Shown: piece by piece, positions 19,119 to 56,893 of the stretch
How the letters are laid out: each line of letters starts with the position of its first letter
How positions within the stretch are numbered: the first letter of the stretch is position 1
NCBI GenBank assembly: GCA_031268535.1
Contig: JAIRXB010000033.1
Coordinates: 1,886 to 65,885 of the forward strand
Length of the DNA: 64,000 nucleotides
Direction of reading: 5' to 3'
Source of the DNA: Puniceicoccales bacterium
GTDB taxonomy: Bacteria; Verrucomicrobiota; Verrucomicrobiia; Opitutales; JAIRLM01
Position numbers and translations under genes: made by a program
The notes under the pieces: generated by a model
Databases searched by the model: none
The model's input: only the letters and a program-made list of their open reading frames with translations
Told to the model about the DNA's origin: nothing

Positions 19119-20764
19119 TCAGTCTAGGCGTTCTTCTTTCAGCTCTTCGAGCTTATTTAAAGCGTAGCTAGCCGTCGCGAAACCGCCGCTAAATCTCGCA
19201 AGGGGGCCTACGGTTGATCCACTCGCCCACCTACTACCGCTAAGCTTATCCCAGCCTTTACCTATGCACAGGTTGCGAACAAATTCTGCCTTCTCCCCTA
19301 GCCCGCCAGTGGTTTTGCCACTTGCCGCTAAAGCTCCAAGCATATCAACGAGTGCAGCAACGACATCCGCGACTAAGTCAATGCATGAAGCTCCTTCCGG
19401 TGTGCGCGAAAGGCGTCGCCCACTAACACAATCCTGCACCTCAAATTTGCCGCCAACCTCATTGATGCGATTGCTAAACCCCTAGCGTCAGCCTCTGAGA
19501 GCCCATCCCTAACAAGTCGCACAATAAGTTCCTTGCATGCATCTCCGCCTCCGCCGGATCCGACTGCGGCCGCCATGAAAGCCGCAACAAATGGATCGGA
19601 GTCGCCGAAATAGTCCGTACGCGGATTTTCTGAAAATGCCGCTTCAAGCGCCGCAACAACGGCTGCTACCGGATTGCATCCGGCGCCAAATACAGCCGCA
19701 ACACGACCTTGAAACTGAGGAGCGCTCAAAACAACTGGAATCATGGCGCCGCAAACTCCTACGACTGCTTTACTCAAGAATGATTTCTCATCAGGAGAGC
19801 CTCCATTCTTCGCATGCCAGGCGGAACCCGCTTCGCCATCCATCCATTTGAGAGCCGATGCCGCAGCGCGAATTCCCATTCTAACCTTGGCTTCTTCGCA
19901 AACCAAGTTAAAAAACAGATTGAGAAGCTCTTCGTCATCTTTGGTGAATGTTTTACTTGAATCGCGAAAGTTAACTCCGCATCGCAAGCCCAAAAACTCC
20001 CCAAATAAATCATGGAGAACATTATGGCGAGATTTGCCGACCCCTTTGTAGAGTGGCGCTAAATGATACTGCAACCCCATTCCGTTAATATCGTAATCCT
20101 GTTCGCCAGGCTTACGACTGTTACAACACCAATAGGCCTCCCCCAGAATTTTTCCCTCTTTCATTTCCGCACCAAACGGGCCATGTATCCCCATGGCAAT
20201 TGCGACAAACGTTTCGCCGATGCTTTCTTGCCGCTGAGACCAATCGCCTCTTCGCTTAACAAAAAATTTATCGGCTAGCTCCTCAATGCGCTGGAAGCTG
20301 GAGGTGGGAGCGGTAAATTTAGCACTGTCAGCTACCACCTCCTGCTCCTGCAGTTTAACACTCTCAGCTACCACATCATGCTCCTGCGGCTGAGATGGAG
20401 CTTCCTGCGGCCGATATGTAGTCGGTGTCTGGGCATAAATTTCTCTGGCGAGCTGCGCAATTGGGTTGGTCCATGTATTCATGGCTAGCGCAAAATATAT
20501 GACAGCCGCTACACATGCGAGGCCGAGCGTTGCAATGGAGACAGCTGCAATTAAGCAGGCGAGCGGCAGATCTGGCCCATCGTAGATGATTTCAGCAGCT
20601 GCGCTTCTTCTGTTTTTTTCGCAAAAATTCTGAATAGCCTGTCCGTCGCAAACGAAATTTATAAGGAAGTGCGCCGTTACGGCTTGCAGGAGACTCATTC
20701 GCGCCAATGCCGGTTGAACGGAGGCATGTGATTCAGTTTTTGATTGCGGTAGTGCTGTATCCAT
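19119..20764 (-). pseudogene. Paralog family A, second copy, split by a frameshift near 19480-19486 (ORFs 19373-20764 and 19119-19439)
   Basis: The 463-aa ORF matches copy 1 up to ..LIVRLVRDGLSE and then diverges. The overlapping 106-aa ORF in another frame resumes the homology (..FEVQDCVSGRRLSRTPEGASCIDLVADVVAAL versus FELQDYVDGQSLSSTAKGVLCIDLIADVVAAL). Confidence 0.7.
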
Positions 20765-46414: not shown

Positions 46415-46514
46415 ATTGAAGTTTTGCATAAATTGCGTTGCCCTAGATCAACTTGGCCATTTCGCGCTCGAAATACTTTTACATTTTTGCCAATTTTGTC
46501 AAAATTGGGCTGCC

Positions 46515-49500
46515 ATGATTGGAGGTTCATCATACTTTTCAACTCTTATGCAGGGCGCGAACGCCTTTAGGCAGACAAGCTCAAGAGCTCTTGCCGCAGC
46601 CCTAGAAAGAAAACCGAGGACTCATCAGGGACAGACAGTTGAAAAAATAAAAAGTGCCGTGTCTTCCAATGAAGCGGAAATCGTCAACGCCTTCGAGAAA
46701 AAAAATATTTTCATGCGGGGCCTCGCCATAGCATTTAGCTGGGCCGCCGAAATTTGCCACCAAGATGCGGCCGTTAGCGAAATGCTCGCAGCGCTCGATG
46801 GAGACGAAAATGCAATCCACTCACAATCTGGAGTCATGTCGGCCGCGAGCACCATCATCATCAGCACCATAAAAGCTTGCCGCGAAGCGGAATCTAAAAC
46901 GTTTGACACCGTCAGGAGCGCGATGGGGAGATCCGGGCTGAAAGATACACCTTTCAGTGTGCAAAAAATAGGGATGGCTGGACACCAATGCGCCCGCCTA
47001 TCCGACCTGATTGCGTCCGCCATAATTGCCGGAAAAATTAATATTAAAGACCTCTCCGACATAGTGCTTCCCCGTAGGAGCGACCTGGAAGAGCAACGGC
47101 GAAATCTCAGCACCTGCGGATTGTCGCAACAAAGCGACACAAGCCCATCGGAAACAGCATTTTTTGAGCGCCTAGGGGAGGTTTTCCAGTTGCCTGCCGG
47201 TGTCAGACTGACAACTGCCGACGGACACCCGCCGGAATTATCGGGCTGGGTGACATTTGCTGTCGCCATCGCCGAGCTGGCTGGAGCGCACGGCGCATTT
47301 GCAAGCATCGTGACGCAACTAAAAAACGACTTTGCAGCCAAAACGCCGGAAGTTTATGGCCGCAGCGCCGCCGTCGCAACCGAAGCTGCCAATGACGTTA
47401 TGACGGCGCCGGCCAATGGCTTTTCTGGCGGCACCGTCAACTTCGAAGCGCTCAGCTCATTATCACAAGATGAAATCAACGCCGCCGTTGGCGACGTGGC
47501 AAATTGTTTGCATAATACTTTTGGCGTCGAAATTGATGAAGCCCATATCCGCGACGTGGCACTGGGATCCGTCAGCGATCGGCTTCGCGCTGGATGCTTT
47601 GCCAAAGACACCGCCGTTAACGATAGCGATGACTCTCATGAACTAGATCCTGGAGAATTTAAAAGTGGTGACGATTTCATTACGGCGGAATACGCGATTG
47701 CTCTCGGCCGCATCGGCTTTGACGAAAACAGCATCACTAAAATTAACGAAGAGAAGTCCGCTGGAAAATATAACGCAAATTTAGCCAAAACACTTGCTTC
47801 CGCCATAGGCATTTTGCGAAATGCAGCAAAAAATGCAATTTTACAGCACAGAACGCCTGGGGGACAAACGGTTGCCGATGTGGCCGCAGATGTGCGCGCC
47901 GATGGGATGGTGGAAAACCTTAGCGCCATCGACGACACCACAAAAACACTGCTCGCAAACGTTGAAGCGGCGACAGATATCGCCGAGCAGGCGGCGGCGG
48001 CCGCTCCAACTGGACCAAGCATCTCAACCGTCAGCACAAAAGCTGAAACGCGCACCGTAATAGTAGACGCCATTGCGCAGCAGCGCATAAAGCAATCCGC
48101 CGCCACCATTGTGGCCCTCTTCGGCGCCGGCAACATTTCCGACACAACCTTCGCGCAACCCATCACCATCATGGGCGTTAAATGCCACAGGATTAGCGAA
48201 GCGGTTTCCGTGGCCATCGTCCACGGCGGCGAAGAAATCAGCGGGAAAATAGCCACCCTGCTTGAGCAACATAGGGCAGGGCAACAGCGCACCGCCCACG
48301 GAAACAGCACGCTGCTGGACGACCTAGTCGAAGCCATTGGCCTCAATGGGGAGAACGTAACGCTGCGCCCGGCCGACCCGGCAAAATTTAATGGCGTAAG
48401 CATCGCCTTCCTTGAGGCGTTCGTAGCCATTTCAGCCGCCTACGGCCGCGTAGACGAAAAAAACATCAGCTGCGAAAAAGATGCCGCCAAAAGGGGGGCG
48501 GAGCAGCTTGACATCAGTGGCGAGAATAAATTTGCCGCAGCCATAAGTTCGGCGGCATCTGGCCTCGCCGGATCCGCCTACGGCGCACTGCGTGGCGATC
48601 GCAAGGCGGAAATTGACAGCCGCCTGACAGCTTTTGTAAATGCCATTTCCAGAACGCTGGATGACGACGGAAGAGAACAAATTAGTCAAATCGCCGGCAG
48701 CCAATTCTTCGACCCATTCTTTTCCCGCTGGGCTCTGAACGGCTTCTGCGGAGACATGCCATTCGAAATTGGCATAACATCCATCACATCCACCCGCACA
48801 GGACAATATAGGCTGGGAGACATTTTTGCGCTCATCGGCGCACAATGCCCCTCCGGCATGGAGAATAGCGCAATTAGCGCCACAGACACGGCGGCAATTT
48901 GCTCTGCCGCAAATGAATTCCGCAAATCCACCATGGCCGCCATCGGAAAGTGGACGACCGCCTACGGCGAAAAAAACTTCGTGGACGTCTACCGCAAAAC
49001 CTACATCGAAAATCTCGGCGGCAATCATAGCTCCTTCATCGACGAAGTGGCCAATAGGCTCCAAGAAACCTTGGACAAATTTCAAAGGGCGGCGAACCAA
49101 GGCGCTTTGGCAACAGATGCTGGCGAAAAAGAATTCATCGGCAGCCGCCAAGAAGCAGCGGCGGCGATTGGCGAAGAAAACGCCATCTATAGAGGACTCT
49201 TCACCGCACAGTATGGCGATCAGCCACCGCCAAACAAAAAACTTGTAGATGGCTGCGCGCTATTTTTGGACAAAGTCGGCCTCGAAAACGAAACTTTTGG
49301 CAAGCCCATCATGTCCGGCATATATTTGTGCTCGAATGCGGCCGAACTAATTGCCGCCATACTCATGCGTAGCTATTCACTTGGCGGCGTTTTTGAAGGC
49401 GCAATGAGTGACTCATTGCTTGCGGCGCTATCTCCGGAAGATTGGTCGAGACATCTGCTGGGCGACAGCGGAAACGTCAGGCTGCACCCCAAGAAGGGGA

Positions 49501-50234
49501 AAACAGCCCTATCCATTTCCGATCTTAGGGCCGCCAGACCGATCATGGCGAAGCTTGCCGCCATATCTAGAAAAATAAACGAAGCGCACAATGAACGTTT
49601 AGACGCAATGAAAAGTGAGGAAAAAGCCGCAGGGAAAATCAAAAAAAGCGGAGCCGAAACCGTCGAAAGCGCGCGGGGCTTTGGCGGTTTCAAAACCAGC
49701 CAAAATCCATACGGCTTGCTGGCCGGCACGAGCAGGAACGAAGCTGTGGATCGGCTGCGCGATGGCGCCAAAAAAGCCAGAATTACGCTATCGGACAAAG
49801 ACATTGGCATAATTCTATCGCACAAGGCATTGGAGGTCAGAGATGCCATGGTCAAAGGGAAGCTCTACGGCAGGATCTCGTCGATCTTCGACGCGTTTAC
49901 TGGCACCTCCGAGGCAAGGAGCCGCGATGTCTTTGATATAGCAATCGAGGACGACAGCATAACGCTTCAAGAGTTTTTTGGGCGCTATGGGATATATGGA
50001 ATCAGCGGAAATGTCGTGCTAACCAAGAAGCAAGCCAATTCACTGCGAACGACCCTAATGAACCCAATACGCAGCTTGCTGCATGAAGGACTGCTAGAAG
50101 TCGACCTCGGAAATGGCAGGACGATCGTAGAGAACCATGGAGATGGAGAGGCAATGGTGCGCATTGAATGCCGCAAGAAAGCGCTAACGGCCAATAGGGA
50201 ATTGATGCGACTATTGGACGAACTCTCGGAATGA
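46515..50234 (+). CDS. Giant (~1240-aa) hypothetical protein with at least three internal repeat modules; candidate secreted effector
   Basis: Starts at ATG 46515 (MIGGSSYFSTLMQGANAFRQTSS). The repeat cores are FSVQKIGMAGHQCARLSDLIASAIIAGK, FAQPITIMGVKCHRISEAVSVAIVHGG and FGKPIMSGIYLCSNAAELIAAILMRS. No TM segment and no recognisable domain. Confidence 0.55.
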   Translation: MIGGSSYFSTLMQGANAFRQTSSRALAAALERKPRTHQGQTVEKIKSAVSSNEAEIVNAFEKKNIFMRGLAIAFSWAAEICHQDAAVSEMLAALDGDENAIHSQSGVMSAASTIIISTIKACREAESKTFDTVRSAMGRSGLKDTPFSVQKIGMAGHQCARLSDLIASAIIAGKINIKDLSDIVLPRRSDLEEQRRNLSTCGLSQQSDTSPSETAFFERLGEVFQLPAGVRLTTADGHPPELSGWVTFAVAIAELAGAHGAFASIVTQLKNDFAAKTPEVYGRSAAVATEAANDVMTAPANGFSGGTVNFEALSSLSQDEINAAVGDVANCLHNTFGVEIDEAHIRDVALGSVSDRLRAGCFAKDTAVNDSDDSHELDPGEFKSGDDFITAEYAIALGRIGFDENSITKINEEKSAGKYNANLAKTLASAIGILRNAAKNAILQHRTPGGQTVADVAADVRADGMVENLSAIDDTTKTLLANVEAATDIAEQAAAAAPTGPSISTVSTKAETRTVIVDAIAQQRIKQSAATIVALFGAGNISDTTFAQPITIMGVKCHRISEAVSVAIVHGGEEISGKIATLLEQHRAGQQRTAHGNSTLLDDLVEAIGLNGENVTLRPADPAKFNGVSIAFLEAFVAISAAYGRVDEKNISCEKDAAKRGAEQLDISGENKFAAAISSAASGLAGSAYGALRGDRKAEIDSRLTAFVNAISRTLDDDGREQISQIAGSQFFDPFFSRWALNGFCGDMPFEIGITSITSTRTGQYRLGDIFALIGAQCPSGMENSAISATDTAAICSAANEFRKSTMAAIGKWTTAYGEKNFVDVYRKTYIENLGGNHSSFIDEVANRLQETLDKFQRAANQGALATDAGEKEFIGSRQEAAAAIGEENAIYRGLFTAQYGDQPPPNKKLVDGCALFLDKVGLENETFGKPIMSGIYLCSNAAELIAAILMRSYSLGGVFEGAMSDSLLAALSPEDWSRHLLGDSGNVRLHPKKGKTALSISDLRAARPIMAKLAAISRKINEAHNERLDAMKSEEKAAGKIKKSGAETVESARGFGGFKTSQNPYGLLAGTSRNEAVDRLRDGAKKARITLSDKDIGIILSHKALEVRDAMVKGKLYGRISSIFDAFTGTSEARSRDVFDIAIEDDSITLQEFFGRYGIYGISGNVVLTKKQANSLRTTLMNPIRSLLHEGLLEVDLGNGRTIVENHGDGEAMVRIECRKKALTANRELMRLLDELSE

Positions 50235-50240
50235 TTCCGC

Positions 50241-50822
50241 CTAGGCTGGGCTTTTTCTTTGGAAAATTAGCAGCTGGGGCGAGCCTCTTCCGCGGCGTCC
50301 GATGGCCGTCAGCTGCACGAGTGACTCCGGCATCGGAAACTCGACGCCAAACGGCATTTCCACCGCAGCCACCGCATCGCCATTCGCAGCCCCCATCAGG
50401 GCCCCCACCAGCCTGGCGCAATCGCCGGGCCTTTTCTCCATAAGTTCGTAAGGCGGATCGACAAACAGGAAGTCAAATGGCTCCGCTTTGGCGGAGAAGG
50501 CGTCGCCGCAGCGGATCGTAAAGTTTTTTCGCGGCACCCCTGCCGAAATGGAAATACCATCTAGATTTACGCCTATTTGGCGACAATTTGCCGGAGAAAT
50601 TTCCACGAAATGGCCATGGAGAGCGCCGCGGCTAAGCGCCTCGAGGCCGTAGGAGCCAACGCCGGCAAAAATGTCCATAATCCTTGCGCCACTCAAAGAT
50701 TTCCCCGACGACGCCAGCGACGAGAAAAGCGCAGCGCGCATGGCGTCCGTTGCGGGCCTTGCGGACGACTTCCTTCCGCAGCCTATGGCCATGCCGCGCG
50801 CCATTCCGCCGGTGATGCGCAC
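50241..50822 (-). CDS. rsmD: 16S rRNA (guanine966-N2)-methyltransferase
   Basis: MRITGGMARG...RPATDAMRAALFSSL..DIFAGVGSYGLEALSRGA..VDPPY. Confidence 0.8.
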   Translation of the reverse strand: MRITGGMARGMAIGCGRKSSARPATDAMRAALFSSLASSGKSLSGARIMDIFAGVGSYGLEALSRGALHGHFVEISPANCRQIGVNLDGISISAGVPRKNFTIRCGDAFSAKAEPFDFLFVDPPYELMEKRPGDCARLVGALMGAANGDAVAAVEMPFGVEFPMPESLVQLTAIGRRGRGSPQLLIFQRKSPA

Positions 50823-55433: not shown

Positions 55434-56063
55434 GTGCGCATAGTGCATTTCATTTGCGGCCCAATCGCAAACAATTGCTACCTCGCCGTTCGCGACGGCG
55501 AATCGGTCCTCGTCGATGCCCCCATCGGCAGCATGGCCAGCTACGAAAAATTCACAGAAACTAGCGCGAATGAGTTGCGCGGCCTGCTGCTCACCCATGG
55601 ACACTGGGATCACATGGCGGAAGCGGCCCTTTTCCAAAAAAAATATTCGGTGCCCGTCTACGCAAACGAAGGCGACCTGCCAATGCTGCTAAACCCTGAT
55701 GCCATGAGAAGTTACTCGGTCCCCGCCGTTGAAATTCTCCCCTGCCGGCCGGACGTGGCCGTCTGCGACGGAGACAAACTGCAACTGCTTGGTTCCGAAT
55801 GGATTGTCCGCTCCGTGGCCGGCCACACGCCCGGCGGCGTGGTATACGGCGTGGAGGATGAAAAATTGCTCTTCAGCGGCGACTCTCTCTTTCGCGGAAC
55901 GGTCGGACGCAGCGACTTGCCGGGCGGCAACGGCGAATTGCTGATTGAGCAGCTGCTGGAGCGGGTCATGTCGCTGCCAGACTGGGTTAATGTGCTTCCC
56001 GGTCACGGACATACGACAACCATAGGGGAAGAAAGGCGCCACAATGGCCACTTAAAACTCTAG
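55434..56063 (+). CDS. MBL-fold metallo-hydrolase (glyoxalase II / YcbL-like)
   Basis: THGHWDH motif, HTPGG, and a C-terminal PGHG. Confidence 0.8.
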   Translation: MRIVHFICGPIANNCYLAVRDGESVLVDAPIGSMASYEKFTETSANELRGLLLTHGHWDHMAEAALFQKKYSVPVYANEGDLPMLLNPDAMRSYSVPAVEILPCRPDVAVCDGDKLQLLGSEWIVRSVAGHTPGGVVYGVEDEKLLFSGDSLFRGTVGRSDLPGGNGELLIEQLLERVMSLPDWVNVLPGHGHTTTIGEERRHNGHLKL

Positions 56064-56893
56064 TGGCGCAAGTAGCCAATGACCGTCATTTTATCGCCGT
56101 TCTGCCTACAGCGTAGGCAGTAGGGAGAGAGCCCTATGAGATTTCGAATCCCCATTTCAATTTCGTTGGTGTTTTCCAAAAGAATGACATCACCAACGCG
56201 CAGATCAGCCACCGCATTGCGGGGCATCTCCAGCGCCGCCACGGCATTTATGGTGCGCGGAACGGCCGCCTCGTGGTACCTATAGGGGACAACTTCCTCC
56301 GCGCGAACCGCATCCAAAATTCTCTCCATCAAATTGCGATCCATGGAGAGCATGCCCGAAATCACCAATGGCACACTTTCGCCGCAGTGGGGATTTTTTT
56401 CGTAGATGTGAAATGAGACGTGAAACGGTAGGGAGCGGCGGCGGTGAACGCGGTGCAGGGCAACGTTTTCCACCGTAGCGGGAGCGCAAAGCCAGCCCTC
56501 CAGCGTTGAGAGGAGCGGATCGAGGAGCGATTCCACCAAAATTTTTTGCACGTCGGCCGGATAGATTTCGAAAGCCATTTTGCGCAGCCGCTCATCAAGC
56601 AGCGCACACGATGAAACAGACTCAACCCCAATGCGCATGGCCACATCGCCAACGCGCAAATCCACAGATGCGCCGCAGTCAATTGGAGTGTCGCCGCGCA
56701 ACACCAGGAAAAGTTCGCGGCCAAAATAGGAAACGCGCACAATGCGCGCCCTGTAAAAAACTTCATTGTTGAAATCAACAATCCACTGGGACATTTTTTC
56801 GGCGGCAAGGGAAATGGCCGAAATGGCCCTTTTGCGTTTCGCAGCGGGAGTTTTTTCGGATTTTGCGCGCGCGGCGCCGCTCTGCTGCGTCAT
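56060..56893 (-). CDS. sctQ: SctQ-like cytoplasmic-ring (sorting platform) protein
   Basis: It is the fourth gene after sctN-O-P. The C-terminal AVADLRVGDVILLENTNEIEMGIRNLIGLSPYCLRCRQNGDKMTVIGYL is SpoA-like. 277 aa. Confidence 0.5.
   Translation of the reverse strand: MTQQSGAARAKSEKTPAAKRKRAISAISLAAEKMSQWIVDFNNEVFYRARIVRVSYFGRELFLVLRGDTPIDCGASVDLRVGDVAMRIGVESVSSCALLDERLRKMAFEIYPADVQKILVESLLDPLLSTLEGWLCAPATVENVALHRVHRRRSLPFHVSFHIYEKNPHCGESVPLVISGMLSMDRNLMERILDAVRAEEVVPYRYHEAAVPRTINAVAALEMPRNAVADLRVGDVILLENTNEIEMGIRNLIGLSPYCLRCRQNGDKMTVIGYLRH

Follow-up and report, generated by a model that had tools for sequence, protein, structure and literature searches.

In a 64,000-nt stretch of DNA from a Puniceicoccales bacterium (positions 1,886 to 65,885 of contig JAIRXB010000033.1, assembly GCA_031268535.1; hereafter the window), we analyzed an orphan gene (46515..50234, + strand) whose predicted product carries three copies of a module of ~120–145 residues, repeated with a period of 383–399 residues. 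As judged from profile and homology searches, the module is an undescribed domain family, and both the orphan and the module are restricted to one uncultured genus. The gene is furthermore predicted to be transcribed independently of the upstream atpB gene onto a leaderless or near-leaderless mRNA, and it is a candidate for a substrate of the type III secretion system (T3SS) that is encoded in the same genome.

Identification of a Large Orphan Protein

The orphan gene runs from an ATG at 46515 to a stop codon at 50232–50234 and encodes 1,239 residues. The open frame on the + strand begins at 46416 and comprises 1,272 uninterrupted codons with a G+C content of 53%. A public gene prediction at this locus (P0002, 1,228 aa) places the start 11 codons downstream, at ATG 46548, which corresponds to Met12. 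Searches of the protein against Pfam and NCBIfam yielded no family at E ≤ 1, and a comparison with the PDB sequences gave a single noise match (E = 0.27). These results agree with a previous sequence-only reading of this DNA, which had described an orphan open reading frame (ORF) of ~1240 aa that could not be related to any described family, and a profile search of the PDB sequences (see below) points in the same direction. A match to a housekeeping family, which that reading had named as an argument against itself, was found neither in Pfam and NCBIfam nor in the PDB.

The protein contains 14.0% Ala and 1.1% Cys. No Asp or Glu occurs within residues 1–30, and seven Ser/Thr residues but zero acidic ones are present among residues 1–25. 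The mean Kyte-Doolittle hydropathy over 19 residues peaks at 1.64 in three stretches, one per module, each at the position of the module's hydrophobic helix. Since these stretches include Glu or His, the protein has no convincing transmembrane (TM) segment. A hydropathy scan did not detect a Sec-type h-region within the first 40 residues, and neither a Tat-type N-terminus, a lipobox, RTX or beta-rich repeats, nor a recognisable anchor was found in the protein. The earlier description of an Ala-rich protein without a TM segment and with an N-terminus free of acidic residues was thereby confirmed.

Three Diverged Modules With an Invariant Cysteine

Module 1 (M1) is encoded at 46875..47309 (+) and covers residues 121–265 according to the hidden Markov model (HMM) envelope, whereby the similarity to module 2 starts at about residue 112. 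Its core motif is GLKDTPF..KIGMAGHQC(159)ARLSDLI with the cysteine C159. Module 2 (M2; 48078..48461, +; residues 522–649, or about 521–650) has the core motif GNISDTTF..PITIMGVKC(557)HRISEAV with C557 and aligns with module 2 of the ortholog from a related genome (G001, see below). Module 3 (M3; 49221..49574, +; residues ~903–1020) is the most diverged copy, with the core motif GLENETF..PIMSGIYLC(939)SNAAELI, followed by GNVRLHP, and C939 as its cysteine. Overall, a module consists of a helix, the consensus G-[IL]-x-N-x-x-F-x(1,2)-P-I-x(3)-G-x-x-C-x(3)-[AS]-E-L, a variable insert that reaches ~50 aa at most and is missing from M3, the motif G-x-V-x-L-x(2,3)-D, and a hydrophobic helix. In an alignment of six modules from three species the cysteine (C159, C557, and C939 in the orphan) is the sole invariant column, and no invariant His, Asp, or Gln that could serve as a partner was present in this alignment. 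The least diverged copies of the module read GHACH at this site.

An ordinary self-BLASTP of the orphan protein (word size 2, E ≤ 10) gave no off-diagonal match. Because this method is blind to the repeats, Smith-Waterman alignments with shuffled sequences and profile methods are needed to detect them. The local alignment of residues 101–300 with residues 501–700 scored 83 compared to 33.5 ± 5.5 in 500 shuffles, and M1 (121–265) aligned with M2 (521–650) with a Smith-Waterman score of 75 compared to 28.5 ± 5.0 (z = 9.4); the M1/M2 score was reached by none of the 300–500 shuffles. M3 was not significant in pairwise comparison with M1 or M2 (z 0.7–1.5). It was recovered by a leave-one-out profile built without M3 (E = 0.002 at Z = 8818, which is the size of the ORF set of this genome), and a single-module protein of another related genome (P0004 of G002) matched M3 in BLASTP with E = 3e-7 and M2 with E = 0.018. 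In addition, an hhalign self-comparison based on the small family alignment yielded one off-diagonal alignment of residues 504–961 onto 103–579 (P = 3.5e-6), in which M2 is chained onto M1 and M3 onto M2, while the linkers are nearly free of signal. The two inter-module linkers have a length of ~250 residues each, and pairwise tests of the linker and terminal regions for hidden repeats gave nothing above z≈2. Between species, the modules are the best-conserved parts of the protein and the linkers are less conserved. The sequence-only reading had proposed at least three diverged internal modules with a conserved Cys in each core that originated by internal duplication. Its modules amount to exactly three, the Cys is invariant in all six aligned copies, and duplication is backed by the Smith-Waterman, profile, homologue, and hhalign results, although the repeat detection that it had suggested as a check succeeded only with the latter kinds of method and not with self-BLASTP. 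The most economical history would be a triplication of a ~390-aa unit, of which the linkers have since diverged past recognition.

Restriction to One Genus and Rapid Divergence

A word-indexed search of 5.8e9 proteins with the orphan returned only the orphan itself. The six-module profile, run with HMMER against all 1.84e9 cluster representatives, yielded four matches, which are the proteins from which the profile had been built. Comparison of the orphan with a set of 41 related genomes, and of the module profile with all 14 members of the GTDB family, gave matches in the own genus only, and the module family was not found in the other four genera of that family. Within the genome itself (G000) a module HMM search of all ORFs of ≥60 aa detected no paralog. 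Two contig-level scans for the orphan protein gave nothing. For the checks proposed earlier on the distribution in relatives and on remote homology, matches were confined to the genus, with nothing beyond it in the exhaustive HMMER search.

The ortholog in G001 spans two contig ends. P0003 represents its N-terminal part and terminates in module 1, whereas P0005 (883 aa) includes module 2 as well as module 3 in a degenerate form. At 24% identity (E = 6e-11), P0005 aligns colinearly with residues 320–851 of the orphan, and the colinearity extends over more than 500 residues without stops. For comparison, the identity between G000 and G001 is 72% for subunit a of the ATP synthase and 82–84% for the H+-pyrophosphatase (H+-PPase), so the orphan diverges far faster than these housekeeping genes. 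The homologue in G002 (P0004) is a protein of 311 aa with a single module. No module match was found in G003 (64% complete) and G004 (77% complete). The locus is not conserved, as the G001 copy is flanked by a Mur ligase gene and thyA, and atpB is followed by mreB in G002 and G003. Therefore, there is no positional ortholog that could be exploited.

A Promoter-Like Site Abutting the Start Codon

A consensus scan revealed a sigma70-like promoter site at 46478..46505 (+) with the sequence TTTACA-16-(TG)CAAAAT, which ends 9 nt before ATG 46515. We analyzed the distance between the end of a -10-like hexamer and an in-frame ATG near the ORF start for 693 long ORFs of the genome. This distance peaks at 9 nt with 11 genes, and 18 genes fall within 8–10 nt, compared to a background of 0.5–1 per position (Bonferroni-corrected Poisson P ~8e-7). 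The genome-wide peak at 9 nt supports the view that ATG 46515 is the true start codon and that the mRNA would be leaderless or near-leaderless and made independently of atpB. Altogether, 24 genes have a promoter-like site 5–12 nt before their ATG, and 20 of them are without a Pfam family above the cut-off, as against 2 of the 10 randomly chosen long ORFs that served as the control (Fisher P = 0.0009). The N-termini of several members of this class are rich in Ser, Pro, Thr, and Ala. Further class sites in the window were found by the promoter scan upstream of 34889, 36655, 20764 (-), 10008 (-), and 39924 (-). The G001 ortholog has a comparable site, TTGCCT-16-TAAACT, located 6 nt before its ATG, and in the G002 gene no promoter-like site abutting the ATG was detected.

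A sequence element upstream of the promoter-like site was considered as well. The 12-mer TGCGTTGCCCTA is common to the upstream regions of the orphan (46433–46446) and of the orphan gene at 20764 (-), and its 11-mer core has only three copies in the genome, one of them at G000:C30:10144. Given the low copy number and the inconsistent placement, its occurrence is probably due to chance, a regulatory site being the less likely reading.

Structure Prediction

AlphaFold2 (AF2) prediction of M1 on the basis of the six-module alignment (6 sequences) resulted in a mean predicted local distance difference test (pLDDT) value of 56.8, whereby only the first ~55 residues reached 70–77. In this part the model shows a helix (2–20), a beta-hairpin (32–39), and a second helix (42–51), with the Cys at the junction of hairpin and helix. 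The model of residues 40–1239 is mostly helical with a pLDDT of 40.9, and in it the helix-hairpin-helix arrangement recurs in module 2 but not in module 1. A Foldseek search of the module model against the PDB gave nothing better than E = 2.8, and a profile search of the PDB sequences with the module gave no match. The earlier suggestion that the protein is probably helical is therefore consistent with the mostly helical long model, but the confidence of the model is low and the modelled core of the module includes a beta-hairpin. Likewise, the per-module prediction that had been recommended as a check provided a helix-hairpin-helix core at pLDDT 70–77, but neither a good overall value nor a fold match.

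The modelled cysteine lies behind a beta-hairpin, where the next helix begins, which invites a comparison with Cys-nucleophile effector domains, namely the papain-like folds of YopT, Cif, and OspI and the IpaH-type NEL E3 ligases. This is the usual place of a papain-type nucleophile. In contrast to these enzymes, the module alignment shows neither a His nor an Asp or Gln that is invariant, there is no profile or fold match to them, and three copies per chain do not correspond to their layout. A papain-like or NEL Cys enzyme was thus rejected as an identity of the module, with only the Cys invariant, no profile match, and a best Foldseek value of 2.8. A Cys-based activity is possible for the modules, but a conserved partner residue is missing from the alignment.

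A Host-Dependent Bacterium With a Non-flagellar T3SS

The assembly has a size of 1.05 Mb in 33 contigs and is 93% complete, and all 14 genomes of the GTDB family measure 0.7–1.4 Mb. The closest H+-PPase genes (71–84% identity) belong to Puniceicoccales bacterium metagenome-assembled genomes (MAGs) named Nm470_bin13, Po218_bin38, Roe453_bin74, and Iy174_bin61, a naming series which we take to denote termite-gut bins. The verrucomicrobial "Nucleococcus cluster" comprises nuclear and cytoplasmic endosymbionts of termite-gut protists, for which a Ca. Nucleococcus MAG of ~1 Mb has been mentioned (PMC8204192). It is plausible that the present genome belongs to this cluster.

As judged by the family models, the T3SS of this genome is real and non-flagellar. 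SctV scored 888 bits with TIGR01399 (cut-off 692) compared to 644 bits with the FlhA model, and SctX and SctY adjoin it on contig C7. The type III secretion ATPase gene sctN (58167..59537, -) is located 8 kb downstream of the orphan in the same window and scored 754.6 bits with NF005391 (cut-off 657) and 669.6 with TIGR02546 (cut-off 604.75). SctC was over its cut-off on contig C32 (16560–18206). Within the family, SctV passed its cut-off in 13 and SctC in 12 of the 14 genomes. The T3SS genes are dispersed over at least three contigs, namely C3, C7 (sctV/X/Y), and C32 (sctC).

Some additional observations were made around these genes. In the region 56060–59537 (-) sctN is followed by a coiled-coil gene of 170 aa and by a gene of 246 aa with a weak SctP-like match (E = 0.0055), and the 277-aa gene after this trio has no family match. 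Weak SctC-model matches on contig C5 suggest a second secretin-like gene. The sctC contig furthermore contains an open frame of 3,687 codons (G000:C32:30728-41788, +), which is another giant orphan candidate.

A Candidate T3SS-Delivered Protein and Its Alternatives

We tentatively favor the reading that the orphan is a T3SS-delivered, host-directed protein, with a confidence that stays a little below even. This reading is suggested by the finding that a conserved injectisome is kept in a host-dependent bacterium, and by the large size of a protein that has neither a Sec signal nor a TM segment. It is also consistent with the restriction to one genus together with the very fast divergence, with a 3.7-kb frame that stayed intact in a reduced genome, with modules that are more conserved than the linkers, and with the location of the gene in a promoter-layout class dominated by orphans. 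From these observations we infer secretion, host targeting, and a function of the modules. In the proposed scenario a ~390-aa unit would have been triplicated, whereby only the ~120–145-aa module of each unit stayed recognisable. The gene would be transcribed from its own promoter, leaderless or near-leaderless, like about two dozen mostly orphan genes, and the protein would be exported via the T3SS into or onto a eukaryotic host, probably a termite-gut flagellate. The three modules would then constitute the working parts of the protein. Each module might bind the same host (or self) partner, in which case the protein would act as a multivalent scaffold. Alternatively, all three might be degenerate versions of an active site that depends on the Cys. 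The simplest mechanism would be multivalent binding through three equivalent modules.

Several points weigh against T3SS delivery. Many effectors, though not all, have a dedicated small acidic chaperone encoded next to them, but the orphan is flanked by atpB, rsmD, and the transketolase gene. Type III signals are uncleaved N-terminal stretches of ~20–25 aa that are rich in Ser/Thr/Pro and poor in acidic residues. The first 25 residues of the orphan, with seven Ser/Thr and no acidic residue, point toward such a signal, but in the G001 ortholog the N-terminus includes Asp and Glu and differs in composition, so that a conserved N-terminal signal is not evident. No eukaryote-like feature was found in the orphan sequence, and a search for public RNA or DNA sequencing runs for the gene found none. 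The structure models are of low confidence, with pLDDT values of 56.8 (module) and 40.9 (whole protein), and the Foldseek search was blank. Catalysis by the module is speculative, because neither a His nor an Asp is invariant beside the Cys. Finally, the enrichment control of the promoter class comprised 10 genes only, and the class also includes LpxB, an ABC ATPase, adenylate kinase, and a glycosyltransferase-like gene. Since housekeeping genes share the class, the layout is orphan-enriched rather than orphan-specific.

The sequence-only reading had envisaged a large modular secreted protein, be it an effector, a translocon-associated protein, or an adhesin-like one. The effector version appears plausible by circumstance, through the T3SS genes, the lack of Sec and TM features, the fast evolution, and the promoter layout, and it is weakened by the missing chaperone and the unconserved N-terminus. 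A translocon or tip component (SctE/SctB/SctA) was rejected, as hydrophobic helices are lacking, with the hydropathy maximum of 1.64 lying in segments that contain charged residues, and as the gene is not part of a T3SS operon but lies between atpB and rsmD. A Sec-dependent surface adhesin was rejected, too, since the protein has no signal peptide with an h-region, no lipobox, no anchor, and no adhesin-type Pfam domain, and its model is mostly helical.

It might also be that the orphan is not secreted and acts in the cytoplasm as a lineage-specific protein, for example a helical scaffold or a cytoskeleton-like or regulatory protein, which evolves fast only through relaxed selection in a small symbiont population. 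The housekeeping neighbors, the mostly helical model, and the lack of a signal peptide, an adjacent chaperone, and a eukaryote-like domain would fit well with such a protein. However, general drift falls far short of explaining the gap between 24% identity for the orphan and 72% for atpB or 82–84% for the H+-PPase, the other four genera of the family lack the gene, and its promoter layout is common to many other orphans. We regard a cytoplasmic role as less likely than T3SS delivery, but as a serious rival to it. Large repeat-bearing proteins are often surface proteins, and the genome seems to encode a second secretin-like gene on C5, so that export by another route, for example by a type I-like C-terminal signal or by association with the outer membrane, could be considered for an adhesin or coat protein. 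The orphan shows neither a Sec or Tat N-terminus nor a TM segment, lipobox, RTX or beta-rich repeats, or anchor, and its predicted content is helical and not of the beta-solenoid type, for which reason we regard this as improbable. That the gene is decaying or a product of mis-assembly without a current function, as the short G002 relative of 311 aa with its one module might suggest, is hardly credible in view of the uninterrupted frame of 1,272 codons with 53% G+C, the G001 ortholog that is colinear over more than 500 residues without stops, and the promoter-like site that is correctly placed in both G000 and G001.

Genomic Neighborhood

Directly upstream of the orphan, separated by a 100-nt spacer, lies atpB for subunit a of the F-ATPase (45533..46414, +; PF00119, E = 1.1e-39). 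It is solitary, without a following atpE or atpF, as it is across the family. In G006 atpB is followed by an NAD kinase gene, and in G002 and G003 by mreB on the other strand. Downstream of the orphan, rsmD and the transketolase gene are encoded on the other strand. A terminator-like hairpin with a T-run was predicted by consensus scan only at 50239..50261 (+), 5 nt past the stop codon, whereby terminator-like sites in this region are not more numerous than in shuffled sequences. The window is unusually rich in orphans that are interspersed among housekeeping genes, with ORFs of 330–570 aa that have no Pfam match at E ≤ 0.001; stretches of such ORFs are located at 33106–38259 (+), 27862–29547 (-), and 38306–39304 (-).

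In the related genomes, a gene for a protein of 490 aa, in which nothing but a C-terminal DnaJ domain can be recognised (G002:C25, 1990–3462, -), is located two genes away from the gene of P0004, with a prolyl-tRNA synthetase gene in between. In G001 the H+-PPase matches occur in two pieces with one in-frame TAA (G001:C76:1512-3693), so that the gene is broken or the assembly is in error at this site.

Comparison With Known Effectors

Orphans of this kind, which evolve fast, bear repeats, and reside in a reduced genome with a T3SS, are familiar from the Chlamydiae and other intracellular bacteria. Among obligate intracellular bacteria, the chlamydial Tarp, TepP, and DUF582 paralogs are examples of large type III secreted proteins that are specific to their lineage. 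In both cases the bacterium is host-dependent with a reduced genome, the T3SS genes are scattered, and the genes in question are interleaved with housekeeping genes and encode large orphans without a Sec signal, with internal repeats and with fast divergence between close species. In contrast to the chlamydial proteins, secretion of the orphan is a prediction, and there is no sequence or profile similarity between them. Furthermore, its repeats have a period of ~390 aa with a structured Cys module, whereas those of the chlamydial proteins are short low-complexity repeats for phosphorylation or actin binding.

Giant repeat-bearing T3SS effectors of proteobacteria include the AvrE/DspE family, the SKWP-repeat proteins XopAD/RipS, and the TAL effectors. 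Like the orphan, they are very large, internally duplicated, and hard to read for function from their sequence. These effectors depend on the T3SS, a dependence that the orphan would share if the favored reading holds. The orphan has no Pfam match to these families, and the number (3) and length of its repeats differ from theirs; moreover, effectors of the AvrE type have an adjacent chaperone, which is missing here.

Closer at hand are other orphans of the same T3SS-bearing genome, namely tandem paralogs of 530–560 aa (33.1–38.3 kb) and a 463-aa gene (19373–20764), which are Pfam-less as well. A promoter-like site precedes the ATG by 9–12 nt in the 463-aa gene and in two of the three paralogs (starting at 34889 and 36655). 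They show no detectable relation to the module, and their N-termini are rich in Ser and Pro, which applies only weakly to the orphan.

To our knowledge, the verrucomicrobial symbionts of termite-gut protists are uncultured, and we know of nothing that has been reported on their dealings with the host. Since a complete-looking injectisome is kept in ~1 Mb, the orphan proteins of this family are natural candidates for host manipulation. The protein described here is by itself one more uncharacterised candidate effector, which supplies a defined new domain with three copies and one invariant Cys. The observation on the promoter class may be the more useful and more general lead, as it provides a handle for finding the whole repertoire. 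A bolder proposal, which we consider a long shot, is that the ~130-aa Cys module adopts a novel fold, has an activity or a host target of its own, and was triplicated in an effector of the "Nucleococcus cluster", the verrucomicrobial symbionts of termite-gut flagellates, and that the promoter-abutting-ATG layout marks the effector repertoire of this lineage, comprising ~20 orphans. If this were true, the promoter layout would allow the effectors of an uncultured symbiont with a T3SS to be listed independently of their sequence.

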